A DNA stretch of 24,293 nt. Origin: Abditibacteriaceae bacterium. Its GTDB lineage: Bacteria > Armatimonadota > Abditibacteriia > Abditibacteriales > Abditibacteriaceae. Both the position numbers and the translations under genes were made by a program. A model generated the notes under the pieces. The model saw only the letters and a program-made list of their open reading frames with translations. It ran no database searches and was not told the origin of the DNA. Positions 3,673 to 22,033 of the stretch are shown here, in pieces. How positions within the stretch are numbered: the first letter of the stretch is position 1; each line of letters opens with the position of its first letter. The stretch spans positions 1-24,293 of the forward strand of contig JANMKN010000369.1 in the NCBI GenBank assembly GCA_031372065.1. The letters are read 5' to 3'.

Positions 3673-5604
3673 ATGACACAACCAAAACCACTGGTTGAAG
3701 ACATTCAGAACTTTGCCCAGAACATCGTGGATACAGTGCGCGAGCCGCTGTTGATTCTTGACGCCGCGTTGCGGGTGCGTTCGGCCAACCGCGCTTTTTA
3801 TCAGGCTTTTCAAGTCTCTCCCCAAGAAACCGAAGACCGCCTGATTTACGAGTTGGGCAATGGCCAATGGGATATTCCCGCTTTAAGAACACTGCTCGAA
3901 GACATCGTGCCACAAAGTTCAGTTTTCAACGATTTTGAGCTTGAACACGATTTCCCGACCATTGGCCGCAAGGTAATGCTGCTCAACGCGCGTAAGCTGC
4001 GTCCGGGTGATCATACCGAGTTTTTGGTTTTGGCGATGGAAGATGTAACCGAGCGGCGCCGTGCTGAACGTCTGCTTGCCGAGATTGAAACCTACGCTCA
4101 AAACATCGTGGGCACCGTGCGCGAGCCGCTGCTAATGCTCGATAGCACCTTGCGCGTGCGCAGTGCCAACCGCGCTTTTTATCAAACTTTTCAGGTTTCA
4201 CCCGAAGAAACGGAAAATCGCCTCATCTATGAGTTGGGCAACGGCCAATGGGATATTCCCGCGTTGCGCACGCTACTCGAAGAAATTATCCCTAAGAGTT
4301 CAGTTTTCAATGATTTTGAACTGGAACACACATTTCCAGCCATCGGGCGGCGCGTGATGCTGCTCAATGCGCGCCAACTGCGGGCCGGCATTGACACGGA
4401 ATTGTTGGTTTTGGCGATGGAAGATGTAACCGAGCGGCGGCGTGCCGAGCGACTTCTCGCGGAAATCGAAACCTACGCTCAAAACATTGTGGACACAGTT
4501 CGGGAACCGTTGTTGATGCTTGACGCCGCGTTGCGCGTGCGCTCGGCCAATCGTGCTTTCTACCAAACTTTTCAGGTTTCACCCGAAGAAACGGAAAATC
4601 GCCTCATCTATGAGTTGGGCAATGGCCAGTGGGATATTCCCGCGCTTCGAACACTGCTTGAAGACATCATTCCGCAAAGCGCAGTCTTCAACGACTATGA
4701 ACTGGAACACGACTTTCCCTCTATCGGGCGCCGTGTAATGTTGCTCAATGCGCGCGAATTGCGCGCCGGCAATCATACGGAATTGCTGGTGCTGGCTTTG
4801 GAAGATGTCACCGAGCGGCGACGCGTGCGTGACATGGAACTTCATTTCAACGCCGAGTTGCAAGAAAGCTATCGCCGCTTGCAAGAATTGGAAAAGCTGC
4901 GCGACGACCTGACCCACATGATTATCCACGACTTGCGGACGCCGCTGACCTCGGTCATTGCCGGAATGCAGACGTTGGAAGTGGTCGGCGAATTGAACGA
5001 GGATCAGCAGGAAATGATGGGCATCGCCATCATCGGCGGGGAAATTTTGCTGGGAATGATTAACGACTTGCTGGACGTGGAGAAACTGGAGTCCGGCTCG
5101 ATGCAGCTTGATTATGCTTTGCTGTCCGCAGAAGAGCTTATCGCCAGCGCCGTTGGCCAAGTTGCACAGCTTGCAGAAAGCGAACGGTTGACGATTGTTT
5201 GTCAGCTTGCCGCTGAGGTGCCGCCGCTGTGGGGCGATGAAAACAAGCTGCGCCGCACTTTGGTTAACCTGATAGGAAATGCCATCAAATTCACGCCTTC
5301 GGGCGGAACGGTGACGGTCGCGGCGCGCCAAGGCACAGAAGAGCAAACAGTTGTGTTTTCCGTCAGCGATACGGGCGAGGGCATCCCGCCCGAAGCGTTC
5401 GGGCGTATTTTCGAGAAATTCGGCCAGGTGGAATCGCGTCAGGGCGGGCGCATCATGAGCACGGGCCTGGGCCTGACTTTTTGCAAACTCACCGTCGAAG
5501 CGCATGGCAGTCACATTGCGGTTGAAAGCGAGCCTAGCCAGGGCAGCACATTTTGCTTCGCCATTCCGCTTGTCGCGCCCCCGGCAGAGGCGGCAAAGGC
5601 TTAA
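3673..5604 (+). CDS. Cytoplasmic sensor histidine kinase with three tandem PAS domains
   Basis: Three copies of a PAS unit (NIVDTVREPLL..LD..LRVRSANRAFYQ.FQ...GNGQWDIP...EDVTERRR), H-box HDLRTPLT, N-box NLIGNAIKFT, G1 DTGEGI and G2 TGLGL. Confidence 0.93.
   Translation: MTQPKPLVEDIQNFAQNIVDTVREPLLILDAALRVRSANRAFYQAFQVSPQETEDRLIYELGNGQWDIPALRTLLEDIVPQSSVFNDFELEHDFPTIGRKVMLLNARKLRPGDHTEFLVLAMEDVTERRRAERLLAEIETYAQNIVGTVREPLLMLDSTLRVRSANRAFYQTFQVSPEETENRLIYELGNGQWDIPALRTLLEEIIPKSSVFNDFELEHTFPAIGRRVMLLNARQLRAGIDTELLVLAMEDVTERRRAERLLAEIETYAQNIVDTVREPLLMLDAALRVRSANRAFYQTFQVSPEETENRLIYELGNGQWDIPALRTLLEDIIPQSAVFNDYELEHDFPSIGRRVMLLNARELRAGNHTELLVLALEDVTERRRVRDMELHFNAELQESYRRLQELEKLRDDLTHMIIHDLRTPLTSVIAGMQTLEVVGELNEDQQEMMGIAIIGGEILLGMINDLLDVEKLESGSMQLDYALLSAEELIASAVGQVAQLAESERLTIVCQLAAEVPPLWGDENKLRRTLVNLIGNAIKFTPSGGTVTVAARQGTEEQTVVFSVSDTGEGIPPEAFGRIFEKFGQVESRQGGRIMSTGLGLTFCKLTVEAHGSHIAVESEPSQGSTFCFAIPLVAPPAEAAKA
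3712..4824 (+). repeat. Three intragenic 381-bp (127-aa) tandem PAS repeats
   Basis: Units start at 3712, 4093 and 4474 (exact 381-bp spacing) and are nearly identical in protein sequence. Confidence 0.95.
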
Positions 5605-7624: not shown

Positions 7625-7685
7625 AGTTAAGAATTATGAGTTAAGAATTTTGAGTTAAATCCCTCTCAACTCAAAACTCTTAACT
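7625..7685. repeat. Heptamer-based (agttaag/aattttg) tandem and inverted repeat at the spoVR 3' end
   Basis: agttaag-aattatg-agttaag-aattttg-agttaaa followed by the inverted aactcaaaactcttaact; arms 7639-7656 and 7668-7685 differ at 1 of 18 positions. Confidence 0.8.
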
Positions 7686-9162
7686 ATCCTATAATCGTTT
7701 GCTCGTGGTCTTTGCCGTCGAAACTTAAAATCGTTTTCAATTTGCTTTCGACGGTTTCGAGATGCACAGGACGTTTCCAGATGGCGAACAGATTCTTCAG
7801 CGTGTCCTGTGCTTCGTCGGTTTTGAGTTCGGTGCCTTCAAAGCGATGCTGCAAATACAACTCGCCCCGGTTTTGGTAATTGCCATCCGTCACATAAATG
7901 AAAGGCCGTCCGTGGTTGGTGAGGCCAAAAAGCAGCTTTTGTTTGATGGCTGCAAAGTCGCGCGTGGCGATTTCATAGGCTTCAATGTCATCGTTCCACT
8001 CGTAGCCAAAGAGCATATGCTCGGCGACAAATTCGGGCGTCAGAAATTCGTCAATGAACGACACGTCATTGAAATGCTGCCACACTTCGAAGATTTTTTC
8101 TTTGCCGAGATTCGCGCCAGTGTCCCAGTGGCGCTTCTTTTTCATGTCGTAGCATTCCTCCCATTCGCGCCCGAATTGACCTTTGTTCCAGCGACGTTCG
8201 ATATCGTTGAGCAAAGCCAAACCAAGGCGATAGGGGTTGATGCGTCCGGGATGCGCGGCGACGGTGCCGGAATGGTGTTCGGCGTAATCTATGGCTTCGT
8301 CGGGCTGCAAAATCTTTTGCGTCATCAGGCGTGTGTGCGCCCAGCACGCGCAACCTTCGTTCATGATTTTGGTCTGGCCCTGCGGCGCGAAATAATAGGC
8401 TTCTTCGCGCACGATGTTTAAAATATCGCGCTGCCACGCTTGCAACGGCGCGTAGTGCATGAGAAATTCCAGCACATCTTTTTCGGGCCGCGCCGGGAAA
8501 TGCTGTTCGGCTTTGGCGTCGGCAATTTTCTTTTGGCGTTGCTCCTCCAAAAACGCCGGAGGGTTGATGTAATCTTCCATATAACCCGACGCTTTGAGCT
8601 TATGTAGAGGCGCGTTTTCGTCTTCGCTTGGCGCCGCACTTTGCTCTTCGCGGCGCTTGATAAACGGCGCGTGCATATCAATTAAATCTTCGATGGTCAG
8701 GCAGCAGTCAATGAAATTTTCCACTTCCTCGACGCCGAACGTTGCCATGTATTGCCGCACGCGCTGGCCGTGATTCGCCATTGCATCGAGCATTTTGCGA
8801 TTCGTCGGCGCGAACATATAATTGTGCTTGAAAAAATGCGCGTGCCCGCAAACGTGCGCGATAACCAGTTTTTGGTCAACCAACGGATTGGAATCCAAAA
8901 GATAGGCATAAACCGGATTGGTGTTGATGACCATCTCGTAAATTTTCGAGAGGCCAAAACCATACGATTTCGAGAGGCGCTCGTATTCCATCCCGAAACT
9001 CCAATGCGGATAGCGCGTGGGAAAGCCGCCATAAGCCGCGACTTCGCTCATCGTCAGGTAATCCACCATTTCGTAGAACACCGGATAAAAGTCGAAGCCC
9101 ATCGCCCGCGCGTGATCTTCAATCTCGCGCTGCACTGACAAGAGTTCGGTTTTGGTAATCAT
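7684..9162 (-). CDS. spoVR: SpoVR/YcgB family protein
   Basis: Motifs GFPTRYPHWSFG, KIYEMVIN, AHVCGHAHFFK, PQGQTKIMNEG and NPYRLG; canonical context downstream of prkA and yeaH. Confidence 0.95.
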   Translation of the reverse strand: MITKTELLSVQREIEDHARAMGFDFYPVFYEMVDYLTMSEVAAYGGFPTRYPHWSFGMEYERLSKSYGFGLSKIYEMVINTNPVYAYLLDSNPLVDQKLVIAHVCGHAHFFKHNYMFAPTNRKMLDAMANHGQRVRQYMATFGVEEVENFIDCCLTIEDLIDMHAPFIKRREEQSAAPSEDENAPLHKLKASGYMEDYINPPAFLEEQRQKKIADAKAEQHFPARPEKDVLEFLMHYAPLQAWQRDILNIVREEAYYFAPQGQTKIMNEGCACWAHTRLMTQKILQPDEAIDYAEHHSGTVAAHPGRINPYRLGLALLNDIERRWNKGQFGREWEECYDMKKKRHWDTGANLGKEKIFEVWQHFNDVSFIDEFLTPEFVAEHMLFGYEWNDDIEAYEIATRDFAAIKQKLLFGLTNHGRPFIYVTDGNYQNRGELYLQHRFEGTELKTDEAQDTLKNLFAIWKRPVHLETVESKLKTILSFDGKDHEQTIIG

Positions 9163-9764
9163 GGCTTTTTCTGAAATAGACCATAAAACGGCAATTCGTT
9201 AGTCCTTCGATAATTCACTGTTGGCGCAGAGCCAATCTTACCCTGCCACTTCATATGTTTCTTCGTTTTCGGATCGTAATAACCAGCCACATTATGCAAG
9301 ACAGCACCTTTACCATCGAAATACTGAATAAAAGTCACAAGTCCTTTTCCCTGTTTTGCAGGTGATTGCCTTAAATCCTGCCAAATCACTCTCGCCAAAT
9401 TTCCCGTTTCGTAATAGGAATAGCTAACTTGCTTTTCCGAATTTAGGAGCGTCTGGTCAACTCTTTCAACGGACACGATTCTCTCATTTTTCAGCCAAAC
9501 CATTGCGCGCTTTTGATAGGTTTCCCAATTCTTTGGGTTTTTCAATGCGCTTTGTCTCTTTAATTCTTTCCAATCTTCTTTGCCTTTTCCTTTCGACAAA
9601 TCAGCAACCATACGCACCATGCTTACACGCATGGCGGTATACCTAAAAACTTCATCGCAGTAGGCCATAGCCTTTGTGGTTTCTGAATCCTTTGCAGAAA
9701 CCACAAAGGCCAGAAACAACGTCAACATCGAAGCAGCAAAAATCGTCTTCATCATTGCACGCAT
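9159..9764 (-). CDS. Secreted Lys-rich hypothetical protein (AT-richer insert)
   Basis: 201-aa ORF with a signal-peptide-like N-terminus (MKTIFAASMLTLFLAFVVSA); its stop overlaps the spoVR start (ATGA, 9159-9162). Confidence 0.8.
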   Translation of the reverse strand: MRAMMKTIFAASMLTLFLAFVVSAKDSETTKAMAYCDEVFRYTAMRVSMVRMVADLSKGKGKEDWKELKRQSALKNPKNWETYQKRAMVWLKNERIVSVERVDQTLLNSEKQVSYSYYETGNLARVIWQDLRQSPAKQGKGLVTFIQYFDGKGAVLHNVAGYYDPKTKKHMKWQGKIGSAPTVNYRRTNELPFYGLFQKKP

Positions 9765-9766
9765 AA

Positions 9767-9800
9767 ATCATCGTCCCTTTCCCAAAAACGCCTTAATCGC
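9767..9800 (-). repeat. 34-bp duplicate of the yeaH/yhbH 3' end (partner at 10464-10497)
   Basis: atcatcgtccctttcccaaaaacgcCttaatcgc versus atcatcgtccctttcccaaaaacgcTttaatcgc; both encode AIKAFLGKGR*. Confidence 0.95.
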
Positions 9801-9823
9801 TGGCTCCCCTTTGCCCAAACTTC

Positions 9824-9959
9824 AATTGCCCCGCCCGTAAACGAGCGGGCTGATGGGGAAAGCCCGGTAAACCGGGCTGCTAACCATGTATTGTGCGATG
9901 TGACAGCCCCGTTCACGGGGCTTTATAATTCAGCCCGCTCGTTTACGGGCGGGACAATT
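9824..9959. repeat. 136-bp nested palindrome made of REP-like hairpins (REPIN-like), downstream of the Y1 transposase
   Basis: 30-bp outer arms 9824-9853 and 9930-9959 (1 mismatch), each itself a hairpin; inner hairpins aaagcccggtaaaccgggctg (9859-9879) and cagccccgttcacggggcttt (9904-9924). Confidence 0.9.
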
Positions 9960-9967
9960 CGCGGTTG

Positions 9968-10393
9968 CTATTCGTTTTCGCTTTCGATTGTCTCCAACAA
10001 CCGCGAAAGGCGTTTTGCAGCGTGGCGTTCTTCTTGTTCTTCGATATAGCGCACAACTTTTTCGGTTTCGTCGGCACGCAAAGAAACCACGCCATAGCCT
10101 TCTTGCCATTTCAAAAAGTTTCGCGCACCGAAACGATGATTGTGTTCATACGAAGTAGCGCCTTTGATTTCACCAATGAATTCTGCCGGTGCAATCGTGG
10201 GTTTTAATCGCACCAGCAAATGCATATGATCGGGCATCGCGTTGCACGCTATCGGATTCACGCCGCGTTTTCGACAGGCTTCGCCAACAGCGTCAATCAC
10301 TTGTCGTTTGGTGCCTTCTTCAATGAGCGGCAATCGCTCTTTCGTGGCCCACACAAAATGAAAACACAATTGATGAAAACTATGCGATGCCAT
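9968..10393 (-). mobile_element. tnpA: IS200/IS605-superfamily Y1 (HUH) transposase, REP-associated (RAYT-like), with no tnpB
   Basis: HFVWATKER, HUH motif PDHMHLL, WQEGYG and catalytic Tyr helix VVRYIEEQEERH. Start placed at ATG 10393 (141 aa). Confidence 0.9.
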
Positions 10394-10407
10394 TGCACCC
10401 TGCCTTT

Positions 10408-10459
10408 CAGCCCCGTTCACGGTTTTTTTTGCGTCAGCCCGCTCGTTTACGGACGGGCT
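10408..10459. repeat. REP-like half element upstream of tnpA
   Basis: cagccccgttcacgg...tcagcccgctcgtttacggacgggct, a near-direct repeat of 9904-9953. Confidence 0.85.
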
Positions 10460-10464
10460 AAACA

Positions 10465-11562
10465 TCATCGTCCCTTTCCCAAAAACGCTTTAATCGCGCT
10501 TAAAATGTCGTCGCGGTCGTTGATTTCGGCGGTGACAACTTTGTCTTCGTCTTCAAATTTGTCGTAAATATCCGCCAAATACTGGCCGCTACCCCAGTAA
10601 CTTGTCACTTGGCCGTAGCAAAACTGATTCACCTTCGGCAAAAGCTGATTTTCCAGCAAGTCGTTGCAGCGATGGTTGTCTTCTTCCCAGTTATCGCCGT
10701 CGGAAAAATGAAAAGCGTAGATGTTCCAATCGCTCGGCGGAAAGCGTTCGTCAATGATGCGATTCATGGCGGCATAAGCCGAACTGATTTTGGTGCCGCC
10801 GCCTTCGCGGGTGTGATAAAAAGTGTGTTCGTCCACTTCGCGCGCATCGGCATCGTGAATGACATAGGCTTGCGAGACGCTTTTGTATTGCGAACGCAGC
10901 CATGTATCAATCCAGAACGCCGTGATGCGCACCAGTTCTTTTTGCTCGTCGCCCATCGAACCGGAAACGTCCATCGCGTAGATAATCACGGCGTTGGCTT
11001 CGGGCAGCAAAACCGGATTCCAACTGCGATAGCGTGTGTCTTCTTTGATCGGCACAATTTTCGGATTCTGCGCGTTGTAATCGCCCGATAAAACCTGACG
11101 GCGCAACGCCTGTTTATAAGTGCGCTTGAAGTGGCGCAGCGATTCGGGGCCGACATTGGAAATTCTGGTATATTTATCGGCCTCGCGCGTGATGTTTTTC
11201 TTGCCGCGCGGCTCTATATGGGGCAGTTCCAATTCTTCGCCGAGCATGGCCGCTAATTCTTCCAATGGCACATCCACTTCAAGAATATGTTCGCCCGCGC
11301 CTTGCCCGGCTTGGCCTTTGTCAGTGCCATCGCCGCCGAGCGGGTCGCCGACATCGCCCGGCCCCTGCCCGACGCCGCCGGTGTTTTTGTGGCCGTAGCG
11401 AAACTGTGGCAGCGTGATTTGCGGCAAGGGAATCGAAACCAAGTCGCGTCCTTTTTTGCCAATAAGTTCGCCATTGGAAATGTATTGCTTCAGTTGCCCT
11501 TTGATTTTTCCGCGCACGATTTGTCGAAACCGTGCGTTGTCTTCTTCAATCCTCATTGCCAT
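10465..11562 (-). CDS. yeaH: YeaH/YhbH family protein (DUF444, vWA-like C-terminus)
   Basis: RFRQIVRGKI start, Gly-rich GVGQGPG segment, MDVSGSM, GGTKISSAY and FHFSDGDNW; lies between prkA and spoVR. Confidence 0.93.
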   Translation of the reverse strand: MAMRIEEDNARFRQIVRGKIKGQLKQYISNGELIGKKGRDLVSIPLPQITLPQFRYGHKNTGGVGQGPGDVGDPLGGDGTDKGQAGQGAGEHILEVDVPLEELAAMLGEELELPHIEPRGKKNITREADKYTRISNVGPESLRHFKRTYKQALRRQVLSGDYNAQNPKIVPIKEDTRYRSWNPVLLPEANAVIIYAMDVSGSMGDEQKELVRITAFWIDTWLRSQYKSVSQAYVIHDADAREVDEHTFYHTREGGGTKISSAYAAMNRIIDERFPPSDWNIYAFHFSDGDNWEEDNHRCNDLLENQLLPKVNQFCYGQVTSYWGSGQYLADIYDKFEDEDKVVTAEINDRDDILSAIKAFLGKGR

Positions 11563-12111
11563 TTTGTTTCACCTGCCTTCGTTCTTTTGCATCCGCTATT
11601 TTGAGCAATTTGATTACGCTTGTGTAATTCCTCTTCCGAAATCCAGTTGGGGGACTAACCATTGGGTGATTCAGTGAGAACTTCGTATTGGTCAACGTAA
11701 AAGACAAGGCTGTTCGCCCGCCTTTATCTTTTTGACTTACCTTCGCGCCCTTGCTCAAAAGCAATCGCACAACAGACTCGTTGCCATCCCAAGCCGCGAT
11801 CATTAGGGGTGTCTGGCCGTCTACCCAATCTGCAACATTAACTTTTGCGCCGTTGTCTATCAAGAACTTACAGGCTTTTACATTTTGCGCTCCCTGTAAA
11901 GGTGTAAGTCCAGACCTATCTCTGTAATTAACATTTGCACCTTCGTTAATTAAATGTTGCATCTCAACAAGATTAGGTTGGCCCTTCCACGCTTCGTCGA
12001 ATAGGGCAACGTCATTGCGATGCCGTAAGGCATATCGTAGGGGCAGCAACAAACTGAAAGGTAGAGCAATCAGTGCTACCCTCTTTACAGTTCTCACTGT
12101 CTGCCACACTT

Positions 12112-12115
<4 letters not shown>
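11546..12115 (-). CDS. Ankyrin-repeat protein with an N-terminal hydrophobic anchor (AT-richer insert)
   Basis: Repeats [35 protein letters not shown] and [15 protein letters not shown]; start overlaps the prkA stop (ATGA) and the end overlaps the yeaH start by 17 bp. Confidence 0.88.
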
Positions 12116-14142
<2,027 letters not shown>

Positions 14143-14632
14143 AAACGCCTCCTTTAGAAAAGGCGAAAACCGACGAAGAGAAAGCGAAAACAGCGCGCCA
14201 CCCATAGCTTCAGCCTGTCGGCTTTTGCCCTTTTGTGGCACGATATTTCGGAGGCGTCAGGAAAGAATTTCGTGGCGCGCGTTACTGCGTTACGTTGAGG
14301 AACAACGAAGAACAAAAATAGGTTCGATGCCTAACAATTCCCCGGACTGCGAGGTTTACGAAGTCTTGCGGAAGGTTGGCCTTGATTATGTTGCGTTTAA
14401 TGTCTTGCGACATCGGCTGCGATGAGACTTCAATGCTTTAAGTGGCGGCTTTGACGTAACCGCACCGTGCAAGTTACAAAAATTTTACCATTAGCCAATT
14501 TTCTGTTCAAATAAGGTTTTCAGAACATCTTAAATCGAAGATTGCGCGCCTTTTTCAAGGCTCAGATTGTGTAAAGACGCGGACAGGAAATATAACAACC
14601 GCTTGCGGCTTTCATAACTCTAAAGATTGTTC

Positions 14633-17600
14633 ATGAGAAATCTCACCTGGCTCATTTTTCGCGGCTTGCTTTTGCTTGGTCTCGCGGCGTTTTTGCTCGG
14701 CAACAGTGGCGCGCAACAACAATATGTCGCCTTAGCCGACGCACCAAAAGCGAAGTTGCGCTTTAACAAAGACATCCGCCCGATTCTTTCCAACTCGTGC
14801 TTTTTGTGTCACGGCCCGGACGAGAAAAAGCGCTCGGCGGGTTTGCGTCTCGATATGCGCGATGTGGCCGTTGCCAAAGGCGCCATTGTGCCGGGTAAGC
14901 CGGACGAAAGTGAGATTTTAAAACGCGTCATGGCGCACGGCGACGACCAAATGCCGCCGCCTGACAGCATCAAGCCGCGTTTAACAGACAGGCAAATCGC
15001 CACACTGCGCCAATGGATTGCCGAAGGCGCCGAATACGAGCCGCATTGGGCTTTCGCGCCGCTTTTGGAAGTTGCGCCGCCTGCGAACAAAAACAAAACG
15101 TGGCCCAAAAACCCCATTGACAATTTCATCTTGGCGCGGCTCGAAAGCGAAAATATTCAGCCGTCGCCGCCCGCAGACAAAGCCACGCTTTTGCGCCGCG
15201 TGAGTTTAGATTTAACCGGCCTTCTGCCAACGCCCGATGAAGTGCGCGCTTTTCAAAACGACAAAGCGCCGGATGGTTACGAAAAAGCCGTGGACAAACT
15301 TTTGGCGTCGCCGCATTATGGCGAACGCTGGGGCCGTCATTGGCTCGACCAAGCGCGTTATGCCGATTCCAACGGCTACACTTTCGATAACGAACGTCCG
15401 ATGTGGCCGTATCGCGATTGGGTGATTAAAGCCTTCAACGATGATATGCCGTTCGACGAGTTCACCATCGAACAACTCGCGGGTGACTTATTGCCCAATG
15501 CCACAAAATCGCAAATCATAGCTACGGCCTATCATCGTAACACGGGCATCAACGAAGAAGGCGGCAGTGACCCGGAACAGTTTCGCAACGAAGCGACGGT
15601 TGACCGCACCAACACCACGGCGACAGTATGGCTCGGCCTGACGATGGGTTGCGCGCAATGTCACACCCATAAATTCGACCCGATTACGCACCGCGAATAC
15701 TATCAAATGTTCGCGTTTTTCAACAACAACGAAGACGTAAATAATAAAGGTGCGACAGTGCCTGTGGCGCAGGGCGAAGTCTTCGGCCAAACGCAGGCCG
15801 TTAGCGCCGCCGATGTTAGCAAAGCCCAAGACGCGTGGGAGAAAAAAGAAGTCGCGCGTTTGGCGCCACAAAGCACAACAAATACGCCCGCCGTTTGGAC
15901 AAACGCGCATTATGTGGATTACGACACGGAAAACAACGGCGGCTTTCAATTGTTGCCGGATAATTCGCTGCTTTCCGATGGTAAAGCCGGGCCGAACGAC
16001 ACATATCGCATCGTCAGCAAAACCGACTTGCCGCAAATCGCCGCGTTTCGCTTGCGCGTTTTGCCGCACGAATCGCTGCCCAAAAACGGCCCCGGCACAG
16101 CGGGCAACGGCAACTTTGTTTTGACGCAAATTGAAGCAACCCTCGACGGCACGCCTTTGAAAATTGCCTCAGCGCGGGCCGACCACGAACAAGCCAATTA
16201 TGCCATCAGCGGCGCGCTCGATAACGACCCAAAATCCGGCTGGGCCATCAACGCTGGCGCCGATTCCAAAGCCAAAATGAACGCGCCGCACGAAGCGGTT
16301 TTCTTCTTCCAAAAGCCGGTTGCCACCAACGGCAAGCCGCTGCAAATTCGACTCAAACACGAATTAAACGACCGCTATCTCATTGGCCACTTTGCTCTCG
16401 ATTTCATCGCCACGCCGCCAACAGTTGCATTATCCGACGCCGATGAAAAATTATTAGTGGCGCTGCAAACAGAACGGGCCAAGCGCAGCGACGAGAAAAA
16501 GAAAGTCATTGAAATCGCCTTCGAGCCGTCGCGCCCCAAGCCAAACACCGTTGATTTAATGGTAATGAAAGAGCGCGCTCAATTGCGCCCAACTTTTCTA
16601 TTGCAGCGCGGCGACTTTTTGCGGCCCGATCAAAAACTCGGCGCGCTCGAACCCGGCACGTTGGGCGTTTTGCCACCGCTTAAACATGAAGGCCGCGCCA
16701 CGCGATTGGATTTGGCGAAATGGCTTGTCTCAAACGAAAATCCGCTGACGCCGCGCGTGACGATGAACCGCATTTGGATGCGTTATTTCGGACGCGGCTT
16801 AGTCGAAACCGAAGAAGATTTCGGCTCGCAAGGTTCGGCGCCCACGCATCCCGAATTGCTCGATTGGCTGGCACGCGAATTCATCAAAAACAAGTGGTCG
16901 CAAAAAGCCATGCACCGCTTGATTGTCACCTCGGCGACGTATCAACAAAGCTCCAAAGCACGGCCCGATTTGGTGGAAAAAGACGCGCTCAATTTGCTGC
17001 TCGCGCGGCAAAATCGCCAGCGCGTTGAAGCCGAAATTGTGCGCGACGCGGCGCTTTCGGCCAGCGGACTTTTAACGGGCACCATCGGTGGCCCCAGTGT
17101 GCGCCCGCCGCAGCCCGAAGGCGTTTATGCCTTCACGCAAGTCGGCAAAAAATGGACGGCCAACACCGGCGCCGACCGCTATCGCCGCGCGCTTTACACG
17201 CTCTTTTATCGCAGCGCGCCCTACCCGCTTTTGACGACTTTCGATTCGCCCGATTTCCAGACCGTTTGCACGCGCCGCACGCGTTCCAATACGCCGCTGC
17301 AAGCGCTAACGTTAGCCAACGACGCGTCGTTTTTAGAACTCGCCCAAGGCCTCGCCGCGCGCGTTTTGCGTGAAGCGCCAGACGACACCGCGCGTTTGAA
17401 GCAGATGTTTTGGCTGTGCCTGTCGCGCGAGCCTTCGGCCAAAGAACTAAGCGTTTTGCAAACGTTTTTCGACAAGCAAAAAGCGGCTTTTTCAAAAGAC
17501 GAAAAATCTGCAAACCAATTCTTGCAAGGCGCGCTCTTGCCCGAATTAAAAAACGGAAACATAGCGCAAAACGCCGCTTTGGTTAGCGCCGCCCGCGCCG

Positions 17601-17635
17601 TTTTAAACACCGACGCGTTTATCACGCGCGAATAA
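14633..17635 (+). CDS. Planctomycete-type cytochrome c domain protein (PSCyt1 + DUF1549 + carbohydrate-binding-like insert + DUF1553)
   Basis: Signal peptide; CFLCH and CAQCH heme motifs; [42 protein letters not shown] and NTPLQALTL. Confidence 0.9.
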
Positions 17636-17640
17636 AAACC

Positions 17641-19128
17641 ATGAATGACTTCGACAAACGATTATCACGCGCCATTACGCGGCGGCATTTTTTTGAAAAG
17701 TGCGGCGTGGGTTTGGGCGCGTTTGCGCTCAACTTGATGCTGCAAAAAGATGGCTGGGCCACCGATGGTGTCTCGCAAGGTGGCGGGCCGCTGCACGCCC
17801 TCACGCCGGGCGAAATTGACATGGCGAATCCGCTGGCGCCGCGCCCTGCGCCCGCACCGGCCAAAGCCAAGCGCGTGATTTATCTGTTCATGGCGGGCGC
17901 GCCGAGCCAACTCGATTTATTCGATGACAAGCCGAAACTCCGCGAACTATCGGGCCAAAAACCGCCGCCCAGTTTGATGGAAGGCAAGCGTTTCGCGTTT
18001 TTGAAAGGCAACGAAACGCTGCTCGGCACGGGGCGCAAGTTCGAGCAAGTCGGGCAATGCGGCATGACCATCAGCGAACTTTTGCCGCACACCAAAAAAA
18101 TCGCCGACGAAGTGTGCTGGCTGCGCGGCATGAGCACCGATGTTTTCAATCACGGCCCGGCCAAATTGTTTATGAACAGCGGTTTTCAAGCGCCGGGACG
18201 ACCCAGTTTCGGCAGTTGGCTGACTTATGGACTCGGCAGCGAAAGCCGAGATTTGCCCGGTTTTGTGGTTCTGCAAAGTGGCCCGCGCGGGCCTCGTGGT
18301 GGCAGCACGTTATGGAGCAGCGGCTTTTTGCCGACGGCCTTTCAAGGCGTGCCGTTTCGCAGCGGCGGCGACGCGATCTTGAATTTGCGCTCGCCCGAAG
18401 GCCTGTCGCGCGAGCAGGAACACGACTTTTATGATGCCGTCGAAGCCTTGAATCAACTGCGCCACGACGAAACCGGCGACCCGGAAATTCTGACGCGCAT
18501 CAACTCGTATGAAACCGCCTTCAAGATGCAAACCAGCGCGCCGGAACTGATGGACATGAGCAAAGAAACGCCCGAAACGTTGGCTTTATACGGTGTCGAA
18601 GCGGGCAAACCGAGTTTTGCCAACAACTGCCTTTTGGCGCGGCGCCTCATCGAACGCGGCGTGCGTTTTGTGCAGTTGTATCACACCGATTGGGATCATC
18701 ACGGCGACAAAACCAACAACCTCAGCGATTCCATCGAAACGCGCTGCCGCGAAGTTGACCAAGCCAGCGCCGCTTTAGTCAAAGATTTAAAACAGCGCGG
18801 TTTATTGGAGGATACGATTGTGATTTGGGGCGGCGAATTTGGCCGCACGCCGATGGGCGAAGTGCGCGCCACAGTGGGCCGCGACCATCACATTGACGCT
18901 TTTACCATGTGGGTGGCCGGTGGCGGCTTCAAACCCGGCTTCATCCACGGCGCCACCGACGAACTCGGTTTCGGCGCCACCGATGGCGCCAAACACGTCC
19001 ACGATTTGCACGCCACGCTTTTGCATCAACTCGGCTTCGACCACACCCGCCTCACCTACCGCTTCCAAGGCCGCGACTTCCGCCTCACCGATGTGCATGG
19101 CGAAGTGGTGAACGAAATTTTGGCGTGA
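17641..19128 (+). CDS. DUF1501 domain protein with a Tat signal
   Basis: Tat motif TRRHFF; AKRVIYLFMAGAPSQLDLFD, LARRLIERGVRFVQL, WGGEFGRTP, GRDHH and the terminal RLTDVHGEVVNEILA; typical partner of DUF1549/DUF1553 genes. Confidence 0.92.
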   Translation: MNDFDKRLSRAITRRHFFEKCGVGLGAFALNLMLQKDGWATDGVSQGGGPLHALTPGEIDMANPLAPRPAPAPAKAKRVIYLFMAGAPSQLDLFDDKPKLRELSGQKPPPSLMEGKRFAFLKGNETLLGTGRKFEQVGQCGMTISELLPHTKKIADEVCWLRGMSTDVFNHGPAKLFMNSGFQAPGRPSFGSWLTYGLGSESRDLPGFVVLQSGPRGPRGGSTLWSSGFLPTAFQGVPFRSGGDAILNLRSPEGLSREQEHDFYDAVEALNQLRHDETGDPEILTRINSYETAFKMQTSAPELMDMSKETPETLALYGVEAGKPSFANNCLLARRLIERGVRFVQLYHTDWDHHGDKTNNLSDSIETRCREVDQASAALVKDLKQRGLLEDTIVIWGGEFGRTPMGEVRATVGRDHHIDAFTMWVAGGGFKPGFIHGATDELGFGATDGAKHVHDLHATLLHQLGFDHTRLTYRFQGRDFRLTDVHGEVVNEILA

Positions 19129-19163
19129 AGGAACATTTTTAAAAGCACAAAGAACGAACAAGC

Positions 19164-19901
19164 ATGAAAAAATTCATCGTCGCATTGTTATTGAGCGCAG
19201 CTTTCATTTGTAGTCAAATCGCTTTCGCTGACCCGCCAAAAGCAGAGACTAACGAACAAATCACAGAAGTTTCTTTTCGCCAAGCCTGCCTATGCTCGGA
19301 TTGGGTAGATATTACCCTTAAAGCAGATTCTCCTTTAACTGCTCCCTATCTTGGTTTGGTCTCCCGCTGGCTTGAAACACAACATATTTTTGACCTCAAA
19401 GACAAGTATTTTTTTCAAGATCACACTACAGAATGCAACCAAACTTTCACAATCGTTCGTGGCGGCCAGAAAAAAGTCATTGCCGCTGATTGTGCTGCCG
19501 TCCCGCCAGAGCTTTGGGCATTAGAAATGATAATGCGCCGGATAATTGATGAAATCAAACAAAGTCAGCGACGCGAGGAACTGGAAAAACAGGGAGTGCG
19601 TGGTAAGTTTCAGAATTATATTGCAGAGAAAAATCCAATGGATGAGAGGTCTGTAAATGCAATGGTATGGTTTGAACCTGAGCCATATCAACCCGGTTTG
19701 CAAGCTCGCGGCACTCAAATAACCGAAAACACGACATGGCATTTTCACGCTCCTCTGATGCCCGGCACTTATCGTATGATTCTGGATGTGCAAAGCCGAA
19801 CGCCTTCAAGAATTCCCTTGGAACTGATAAAAGTTGAAGCCAACAAATTCACAGAATTGGAAATTGATTACTCGAAAGTAGTGTCTCCAGTCAAACGATG
19901 A
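19164..19901 (+). CDS. Secreted hypothetical protein (AT-richer insert); N-domain loosely DUF6438-like, C-domain beta-sandwich-like
   Basis: 245 aa with signal peptide MKKFIVALLLSAAFICSQIAFA; the domain calls come only from recalled patterns (FDLKDKY, PPELWALE, PGTY). Confidence 0.75.
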   Translation: MKKFIVALLLSAAFICSQIAFADPPKAETNEQITEVSFRQACLCSDWVDITLKADSPLTAPYLGLVSRWLETQHIFDLKDKYFFQDHTTECNQTFTIVRGGQKKVIAADCAAVPPELWALEMIMRRIIDEIKQSQRREELEKQGVRGKFQNYIAEKNPMDERSVNAMVWFEPEPYQPGLQARGTQITENTTWHFHAPLMPGTYRMILDVQSRTPSRIPLELIKVEANKFTELEIDYSKVVSPVKR

Positions 19902-19904
19902 ACG

Positions 19905-19952
19905 CGCCTCACCGATGTGCATGGCGAAGTGGTGAACGAGATTTTGGCGTAA
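19905..19952 (+). repeat. 48-bp duplicate of the DUF1501 gene 3' end (partner at 19081-19128)
   Basis: cgcctcaccgatgtgcatggcgaagtggtgaacgaGattttggcgtAa versus ...aacgaAattttggcgtGa; both encode RLTDVHGEVVNEILA*. Confidence 0.97.
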
Positions 19953-19993
19953 TTTTACGCCATCGGACACGCTACAGCCTGTCCGAATCTTTA

Positions 19994-20224
19994 TTACGCA
20001 CTCTCATCCGATTTCCCGCCTTTGAGCAGGGCGTAAATCGCCATGGCGTGGCCGTGACCTAAATCAAAATCGTCTTTGAGCCATTGCACGATTGCGCCCG
20101 CTTTGATGCCGCTTTTGATTTTGCCGCCCTCGGTGAAGCCTTTTTCCTCAGCCATGCGCCGAAAATCGTCCGGCCCTTTGCCGGTTTTGGTCTTGATGTT
20201 GTCCAAATACGCTTGAAATGACAT
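19994..20224 (-). CDS. DUF4287 family small protein
   Basis: MSFQAYLDNIKTKTGK...WLKDDFDLGHGHAMAI signature; 76 aa from ATG 20224 with a purine-rich RBS (GAAAGGGA). Confidence 0.85.
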   Translation of the reverse strand: MSFQAYLDNIKTKTGKGPDDFRRMAEEKGFTEGGKIKSGIKAGAIVQWLKDDFDLGHGHAMAIYALLKGGKSDESA

Positions 20225-20456
20225 AATTTCCCTTTCGATATTGGCCCGCACGACAAAAAGAGCAAATATCGCCACGATTAGACAGCCGCCGATGGCGATG
20301 TCATTCGCCTGATCGTTGGAGGGCAAACCCCAATGCAACGCCCGCAAAGAGCCAAGGCGAACCAAAATCAAGATAATCCCGCCTGAAATGGCTATTTGGC
20401 GCCGCTTTTTCGCTTTTTTACTTCGCACATCCCTGATTTTACTGCTTTCTTTGCGC

Positions 20457-20600
20457 AAAACCGGCCTCGGAAATGGGAAAACCGGCCTCGGAAACGGGAA
20501 AAACCCACTCGGATTTCCCATTTCCGAGTGGGTTTTTCCCATTTCCGAGGCCGGTTTTTGCATTTCCGAGTGGGGTTTTCCCGTTTCCGAGGGAGGTTTT
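20457..20600. repeat. 21-bp tandem array in two opposed blocks
   Basis: About 2.7 forward units (aaaaccggcctcggaaatggg; 20457-20513) followed by 4 reverse-complement units starting at 20517, 20538, 20559 and 20580. Confidence 0.92.
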
Positions 20601-20741
20601 CACGAAATCAAGTCGTTTTTTTGGCAAAACGGGCGGGCGGCGCACATTCAACTTAAAAATCCGCCATAATAAAAATAGCCTGCGCGGGCAACGATTGTGT
20701 GTTGCCTGAAGCGCGGGAAATTTCTTGGATGGAGGCCAAAA

Positions 20742-21568: not shown

Positions 21569-22033
21569 ATGAAGAAGTTCGCTTTACAGATGGGCACCGG
21601 TTTGTTGATCACGAGTTTGCTTGGCGTCGCGTTGGCCGCAGGCAGCGACAAAAAAATGGACGGCAAAATGACGCCCAAGATGGCACCGAAAATGGCGCCC
21701 AAAGCCAAAATGACGCAGATGACGGCTACCATCAGCAAAATGGCAGGCCATAAACTGACGGTTATGCCCACTGCCGCCGGCAAAAAAGCTGTGGCGACTA
21801 CAGTTATGGTGCCCGCGTCCGCCAAAATCATGATGGGCAGCCACATGATGAAGTTGTCAGACCTCAAAATGGGCCAAAAAGTCGTCTTTATGATGACCAA
21901 CGGCACCGTCACCAAAGTCATGATGACGGGCGATTCCAAAATGGCACCGAAAATGATGCACAAAATGGACGGCAAAATGATGCACAAAATGGGCGGCAAG
22001 ATGGATCATAAAATGGCACCCAAAAAGCCGTAA
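21569..22033 (+). CDS. Secreted Met/Lys-rich protein with KMxx tetrapeptide repeats
   Basis: RBS AAGGAG and a signal peptide; 29 of 154 residues are Met; repeats KMDG/KMAP/KMMH at both ends of a beta-rich core. Confidence 0.85.
   Translation: MKKFALQMGTGLLITSLLGVALAAGSDKKMDGKMTPKMAPKMAPKAKMTQMTATISKMAGHKLTVMPTAAGKKAVATTVMVPASAKIMMGSHMMKLSDLKMGQKVVFMMTNGTVTKVMMTGDSKMAPKMMHKMDGKMMHKMGGKMDHKMAPKKP

Follow-up and report, generated by a model that had tools for sequence, protein, structure and literature searches.

The window analysed here, a 24,293-nt stretch of DNA from an Abditibacteriaceae bacterium (contig JANMKN010000369.1, assembly GCA_031372065.1; genome G000 below), contains two host genes, yeaH and a DUF1501 gene, each followed by an insert and then by a second copy of its own 3' end. 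We refer to the end of the host gene as the active tail, to the copy behind the insert as the orphan tail, and to the inserted genes as cargo.

At site 1, yeaH (DUF444; 10465-11562, minus strand; PF04285, E=2e-89; NF003711 above cut-off) is part of a prkA-yeaH-spoVR operon. Its active tail (AIKAFLGKGR*; 10464-10497, minus strand) aligns with an orphan tail (9767-9800, minus strand) over 34 bp with one mismatch (AAA/AAG, Lys), and the repeat extends 1 nt beyond the yeaH TGA. At site 2, the DUF1501 gene (17641-19128, plus strand; PF07394, E=2e-152) ends in an active tail encoding RLTDVHGEVVNEILA* with the stop codon TGA (19081-19128, plus strand). This tail aligns with an orphan tail ending in TAA (19905-19952, plus strand) over 48 bp with two mismatches (GAA/GAG and TGA/TAA), and the repeat stops at the stop codon. 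All three mismatches are synonymous, and the sequence flanking the repeats is dissimilar. Direct alignment hence confirmed the two stop-anchored repeats with synonymous-only mismatches given in a preliminary description of this DNA.

Both duplications are covered by independently assembled contigs in a comparison of four runs, all from one study. An X1 contig (X1 is possibly the source sample) spans 8687-15337 with 0 differences, and X2 contigs cross both yeaH-tail junctions (9211-9852 and 10432-11597). Insert 2 is covered by the X1 contigs 19086-19934 and 19910-20548.

The two inserts and their loci in relatives

Insert 1 (664 nt) holds a Y1 (HUH) transposase gene of the IS200/IS605 family (9968-10468, minus strand; PF01797, 87.6 bits; NF033573, 85 bits, above the cut-off of 55) between palindromes resembling repetitive extragenic palindromes (REP). 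One REP-like palindrome lies to the left of the Y1 gene (10408-10457), and two inverted REP-like units on the other side form a long hairpin (9824-9959; -55 kcal/mol, z=-11). The palindrome family counts 21 clusters in the genome (9824-9959 and 20 others) and is found in G000, G002, G005, G011, and G013. The Y1 gene stays below the cut-off of the RAYT model (REP_Tyr_transpos NF047646: 38 < 80), though palindromes dispersed in the genome flank it. Its start probably lies near 10390 rather than at the ATG overlapping yeaH because an open reading frame (ORF) from that ATG would read through the palindrome.

Insert 2 (776 nt, GC 43%) holds a 245-aa cargo ORF (19164-19901, plus strand, GC 43%) with a signal-peptide-like N-terminus; it starts 35 nt past the DUF1501 stop and ends 3 nt before the orphan tail. 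It has no family match in Pfam, NCBIfam, or PADLOC. Its nearest Atlas clusters are all hypothetical (score ≤0.90), one relative with 30% identity occurs among 30 other genomes of the class, and no relative was found in viral contigs. With this 35-nt distance and the probable Y1 start near 10390, translational coupling of the cargo, which the preliminary description had put forward, is not supported as a general feature. Its statement that the window lacks integrase, DDE transposase, and reverse transcriptase genes stands, none of these families having a match among the 20 main window ORFs in a family scan; insert 1 encodes a Y1 transposase.

The ancestral downstream neighbour of yeaH is spoVR/ycgB (7684-9162, minus strand; PF04293). 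Ten relatives carry both genes. Three of these loci are empty, with 6-7 nt between the genes (G004, G022, and G023), two have 53-60 nt spacers, and four hold other cargo without a long tail copy. In G002, the same Y1 gene stands at the locus in garbled form; no orphan tail was found there, and the 201-aa ORF described below is missing. This Y1 insert (G002:C8:70890-71590) has flanks 92-93% identical to the window, and garbling of this sort would be expected if the consensus came from low-coverage or mixed long reads. G005 has a REP half at the yeaH junction with no orphan found, and a pattern scan of metagenomes gave one distant yeaH-spoVR contig with no insert.

The operon holds further inserted DNA. 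Between the orphan tail and spoVR lies a 201-aa orphan ORF (9159-9764, minus strand), a separate insert with an N-terminus judged by eye to be signal-peptide-like and with no Pfam, NCBIfam, or PADLOC match. The six bases ATGATT, found at the end of the orphan yeaH tail and again at the spoVR start, bracket this ORF (9159-9770), which suggests that it was inserted into an earlier yeaH/spoVR stop-start overlap. An ankyrin-repeat ORF between prkA and yeaH (11546-12115, minus strand) is a third insert in the operon; it does not occur at the loci of the 10 relatives, which have nothing or other DNA there.

At the window's DUF1501 gene, G003 carries different cargo that is bounded by a 70-bp orphan of its own, and G001, G002, and G005 have no orphan. 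Genomes of the genus g1 have 24-41 DUF1501 matches each (fragments counted), and these paralogs are hotspots of orphan tails. Orphans follow 4 of 27 DUF1501 loci in the genus; in other phyla, none of 69 such loci has one (p=0.005, with kin that are not independent). For the set from other phyla, 9 of 78 loci were dropped for having less than 500 nt downstream, and the comparison was made without L097 and L098 (Abditibacteriota records; L097 repeats the L019 sequence).

Other host genes give a similar picture. The GFO/SoFic locus is an empty site in G002. Behind the GH26 host, G003 carries the same cargo without an orphan, a donor-like state, and G002 carries different cargo with its own orphan; the cargo between these G002 tails (C24, L077) resembles what we take to be a HigB/HigA-type toxin-antitoxin pair. 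A SoFic homolog in G003 stands behind another gene (threonine-synthase-like by eye) in reversed orientation, with a decayed orphan (score 62 vs a shuffle maximum of 32). Relatives at the yeaH, GFO/SoFic, GH26, and DUF1501 junctions thus show the empty sites and alternative cargo that insertion at these gene ends, as first proposed, would leave.

Tail copies across the genome and their allelic character

Downstream tail copies are a genome-wide pattern in G000 and concern about 1% of its genes. The gene set comprised 4810 genes from a purpose-made dicodon caller, which misses some low-GC ORFs, and the 3839 genes of at least 450 nt were tested. Each anchor was represented by its highest-scoring ungapped copy at a distance of 150-4000 nt, with a score of at least 16 and an end within -12..+5 of the anchor, and only low-copy matches outside called genes were retained. 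Tail copies were found downstream of 32 genes and upstream of one (Fisher p=7e-9). The controls gave 0 and 1 for mid-gene anchors, 3 for an anchor 150 nt before the stop, 5 for gene heads upstream, and 4 for gene heads downstream. The genome-wide enrichment on which the preliminary description hinged is therefore present (32/3839 downstream against 1 upstream and 0-1 mid-gene).

A gapped search run contig by contig with BLAST, to 10 kb, agreed in counting 33 genes with a tail copy downstream and 1 with a tail copy upstream, next to 9 with a head copy upstream, 5 with a head copy downstream, 18 with an internal copy downstream, and 8 with an internal copy upstream. Twelve of the 18 internal downstream cases end at most 112 nt from the stop. 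When repeats were listed without anchor or end filter, 30 copies ended between -15 and +4 of the stop versus 5 between +5 and +60.

The 32 cases and one extra non-coding, multi-copy case form a detailed set of 33 sites. Their orphan tails are 20-198 nt long (median 48), and four hosts have two or three orphans. The inserts measure 88-2563 nt (median 664), and not all of them are cassettes below 1 kb, as initially supposed. The mirror event was also observed, though less often: in nine genes (on C305, C181, C407, C225, C393, and others), the 5' end is repeated upstream, and some of these copies are 100% identical over 41-69 bp.

Blind samples of other genomes gave 0/281 genes in G002 (400 kb only, from an error-prone assembly), 1/320 in G003, 1/252 in G005, 0/249 in G011, 0/203 in G012, and 0/397 in mixed phyla. 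The rate in G000 (32/3839) exceeds that of the pooled other genomes (2/1702; p=6e-4). Against the congeners G002 and G003, p is 0.12; therefore, the blind samples show no genus-wide enrichment.

The codon-level comparison shows that the tail pairs are coding alleles with some decay rather than copies of one sequence. Among single-base codon changes between paired tails, 93 of 133 are synonymous and 40 non-synonymous, and the changes are distributed 63/40/123 over the three codon positions. If the tails had been duplicated and the orphan had then decayed neutrally, a synonymous share of 0.37-0.48 would be expected, depending on transition bias; the observed share is 0.70 (p≤2e-7). Tails of orthologs have 93 synonymous changes out of 110, and the pairs, with 93 out of 133, hence look like alleles plus some decay. 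In line with this, the two tails diverge within their final 6 nt in 21 of the 33 pairs. An in-frame stop is retained at the corresponding position in 24 orphans, and in seven of these the stop codon is a different one. The earlier proposal that the two tails are homologous alleles gains from both the synonymous excess and these differing stops. The decay is visible in a lean of the orphans towards AT (104 vs 69 changes, p=0.0095); full identity is found in three pairs, over 20-26 bp.

The ratio of synonymous to non-synonymous changes is 46:20 in the 5' half of the tails vs 37:41 in the 3' half. A portable long-lived cassette was considered as well and rejected, as it predicts more decay in the 5' half of the orphan and the opposite was seen.

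Mechanism and rival explanations

The layout of gene, first tail, cargo, second tail, and neighbour is common in G000, and its cargo and junctions share no common enzyme or motif. Hosts are ordinary genes such as those for an amidase, an RluD-type pseudouridine synthase, SelB, MetH, an AAA ATPase, a sigma-54 regulator, and glycoside hydrolases, together with three DUF1501 and two DUF1552 genes. The 42 cargo ORFs other than those of the window belong mostly to no family, and matches were obtained to SoFic, HTH, SMI1/KNR4, Imm5, ankyrin, WD40, tyrosinase, and pilin-like families. No recombinase matched among these 42 ORFs. Eleven tyrosine-recombinase matches exist in the genome, one of which shares a contig with a tail site, 10 kb away; cargo without an integrase, as first described, is thus what the whole set presents. 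Neither LAGLIDADG nor GIY-YIG nor HNH nucleases matched in the cargo, most of which is familyless, so that a remote nuclease is possible in single cases. One weak HSDR_N match is below cut-off, and no restriction-modification (RM) gene exceeds its cut-off in 44 ORFs (the 42 and two window ORFs). There is no base bias over the 33 junctions, and the median fold energy before the orphan is no stronger than in controls, which gives no sign of a hairpin or terminator at the junction. Within the 94% complete G000 genome, neither Ku nor the reverse transcriptase family RVT_1 had a match.

We consider it probable that the duplicated tails are scars left when host recombination captured genes through homology on one side only, with selection filtering the outcomes. 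Incoming DNA of a related strain or species, with transformation as the probable route, would bring the same gene with a different neighbour and would recombine through homology within the common gene. The other end of the donor DNA would have no homology because downstream gene order differs, and its illegitimate joint would fall 20-200 nt ahead of the resident stop. That incoming DNA would usually have one homologous arm follows from the ortholog loci, of which only 1 in 24 keeps the downstream neighbour of G000. The outcome would be a whole gene with the donor's end, the cargo next to it, and the resident end stranded with its old downstream signals; repeated events would build arrays. The sharp 3' edge of the copies would arise because homology ends at the stop codon. 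Events in the middle of a gene would destroy it, and long identical repeats would allow the cargo to be looped out, which would leave short or diverged tail copies as the survivors. Tail and cargo may well have come in together since the changes sit directly beside the cargo.

Homology-facilitated illegitimate recombination (HFIR) combines a RecA-dependent anchor with microhomology at the illegitimate joint. The joint could be made by a linear HFIR-like event or by a single crossover of a trimmed, recircularised fragment. We prefer the former because perfect identity extends over no more than 8-11 nt in several pairs. The uptake route, the RecA dependence, and the chemistry of the joint are inferred.

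As to direction, the preliminary description had the incoming tail replace the resident one and strand it downstream. The newcomer status of the active tail is weakly shown. It is favoured by the DUF1552 array, in which three orphans share a Ser codon with G002/G010 and the active tail shares the alternative with G003, and by one base of the window's DUF1501 site, where the orphan GAG is the base in G001, G002, and G003 and the active tail has GAA.

Several observations weigh against capture by host recombination or parts of it. Over six sites and five relatives, direction gives no net signal (in G002, 43 positions are like the active tail and 37 like the orphan) because the two tails are about as distant from each other as from the sister species. 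Perfect runs of 8-11 nt are too short for a crossover in the repeat, which speaks against the circle route. No strain-level empty site occurs among the 15 of 73 joints listed, in contigs of one study. Although comEC and dprA are present in G000, they are no proof of competence because 10-11 of 14 control genomes have them too. Finally, at 16 of the 33 sites, a co-oriented ORF that is complete and no shorter than 100 aa has its end within -15..+50 nt of the orphan, compared with a null mean of 1.2 and a maximum of 4 in 60 random draws. Cargo ending right at the orphan is not predicted by a random donor end. Selection for intact cargo, along with selection against donor terminators that block read-through and against leftover gene pieces, might produce this precision, but this is only a hypothesis, and erosion as its cause finds no support in the comparison of the 5' and 3' halves.

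These cargo ends are the basis of an alternative that we regard as unlikely, namely a dedicated trans-acting pathway that excises gene-sized units (host tail plus cargo up to its stop) and inserts them at gene ends, integron-like without integrase or attC. In its lineage-specific form, for which the chances are similarly low, donor DNA ends would be processed just behind a stop codon and any conserved tail would serve as attachment site. The 16 of 33 cargo ORFs whose stop abuts the orphan are what the case for it rests on. The DUF1552 array (L037, G000:C67:15398-16900) consists of three unrelated single ORFs with a DUF1552 tail copy a few bases after each, and this tail-ORF unit, repeated three times with gaps of 5, -2, and 3 nt, fits such a pathway. 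The SoFic gene at two different hosts in opposite orientation with an orphan at each, and the G000 rate above the other sampled genomes, point the same way. However, the missing junction motif, hairpin excess, reverse transcriptase, and Ku argue against it, only one of the 11 tyrosine-recombinase matches is on a contig of any of the 33 sites, and an allelic tail cannot come from a cargo-only element. If it were true that an enzyme makes the precise stop-codon junction, this would be a new capture system, and ordinary genes would, improbable as we judge it, acquire integron-like arrays of the DUF1552 type with no need of an integrase, an att motif, or a reverse transcriptase.

Less can be said for the model first put forward for RM insertions, in which a staggered break yields a true long target-site duplication and the two identical copies diverge after insertion. 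Lengths of 20-200 bp and the overlap with stop sites fit the cases of PMC2853133, three pairs are identical, and the AT drift of the orphans means that some decay is real. Nevertheless, the synonymous share exceeds the neutral expectation, the copies almost never pass the stop, and the pairs include differing stops, conservative C-terminal swaps, and an AGC/TCA Ser switch matching other species. Moreover, the cargo contains no clear nuclease beyond the weak HSDR_N match. For the set as a whole, we regard this explanation as largely refuted and altogether improbable; for single short identical pairs, it may hold.

Very improbable, too, is that the Y1 transposase/REP system or a cargo-borne homing-type nuclease drives the insertions. 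The Y1 gene of site 1 does lie between REP-like hairpins, and fungal mobile ORFs have the same layout (PMC3630166). Yet REP-like units occur in 2 of the 33 inserts and a Y1 gene in one, the Y1 gene of G002 and the REP half of G005 stand at the yeaH junction with no orphan found, and the 42 other cargo ORFs have no common nuclease. The same low standing applies to a whole gene duplicated or imported beside the resident one, with all but the old tail then deleted. A few longer remnants (225, 135, and 461 bp) would suit it, but the median orphan has 48 nt, the pairs of highest identity are short, and the more synonymous 5' halves do not show the long decay expected at the edge that should erode. 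An assembly artefact, conceivable in a metagenome assembly of 410 contigs, is already refuted by the independently assembled contigs that bridge both sites, by the synonymous differences between tail copies, and by the same footprint in G001, G002, G003, and G005.

Some features of the window lie apart from the two sites. An inverted repeat with 49-bp arms (1417-1516) runs across an aminotransferase gene end and a DAHP synthase gene start. In a histidine kinase gene (3673-5604, plus strand), a 381-nt PAS repeat occurs three times in tandem. Upstream of a gene with an fn3 domain, 21-nt units in an inverted array (20457-20628) form a long palindrome. At 21569-22033 (plus strand), a Met/Lys-rich low-complexity protein with 12-nt repeats, a signal-peptide-like start, and no Pfam match is encoded.

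Comparison with known systems

Site-specific integrative elements such as e14 in the E. coli icd gene supply a replacement gene end and leave the old end downstream. They differ from the present sites in having an integrase and a fixed att site; here, no insert has an integrase and no fixed site exists. Likewise, the integrase in or beside the insert and the attachment motif or hairpin of an integron cassette are missing.

Furuta, Abe, and Kobayashi (2010; PMC2853133) described recombinase-free inserts of RM genes with long target duplication, mostly in naturally competent species. The likeness consists in imperfect direct repeats of tens of bp, often over a translation start or stop. Its definition of an insert (below 20 kb, repeats above 30 bp, no other mobile element, an empty site) agrees with repeats of 34 and 48 bp and inserts of 664 and 776 nt, with empty sites at yeaH and GFO, and with the reservation that the cargo of site 1 is itself a Y1 transposase gene. 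The differences are that the published cargo is RM and its repeats were interpreted as duplication of the target, whereas here the cargo is mostly non-nuclease without an RM match, about 1% of genes are involved, and the repeats are allelic rather than from a single target.

At T6SS (type VI secretion system)/Rhs loci, C-terminal displacement by HFIR was reported (Kirchberger 2017; PMC5361080). There, a new 3' end and the gene downstream of it enter by way of an upstream anchor, the old end is pushed back, arrays form through serial events, and no integrase is involved. The present sites likewise have an allelic new 3' end with the old end displaced downstream. Toxin domains are changed at a few specialised loci there, while here a short, functionally equivalent tail is swapped at ordinary genes.

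In an E. coli laboratory plasmid assay (PMC3240628), 56 of 60 clones had a partial anchor duplication, of 109-950 bp in the 14 sequenced. Foreign DNA is flanked by a shortened anchor duplicate there as well, made by host functions through a single crossover of recircularised DNA; the 109-950 bp are identical, however, the frequency is ~6e-9 per recipient, and there is no tie to stop codons in what that text describes. Fungal mitochondrial mobile ORFs (atp6, atp9, cox2, and nad3 of Glomus/Allomyces; PMC3630166) insert a foreign C-terminus and an ORF ahead of the displaced native C-terminus, with synonymous differences. They encode a LAGLIDADG or GIY-YIG endonuclease, and no such nuclease was found here.

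Within the open papers searched, supplements being outside the scope, no survey of a whole genome for allelic orphan tails at ordinary genes came to light. The footprint itself has already been described in PMC2853133 and PMC5361080, and the new elements are the census, the codon-level evidence, and the serial arrays. The entry of lone accessory genes without a mobility enzyme is usually assumed rather than observed; here, about 33-40 scars of one route can be counted. Donor distance, the order of arrival, and the rate of loss are measurable because both parental alleles of the target persist in every scar. Gene ends at scar loci are mosaics, and an orphan tail may serve as a second homology arm for further spread. 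Judging by the codon result, the "long target duplications" in the literature may be allele swaps and not duplications.

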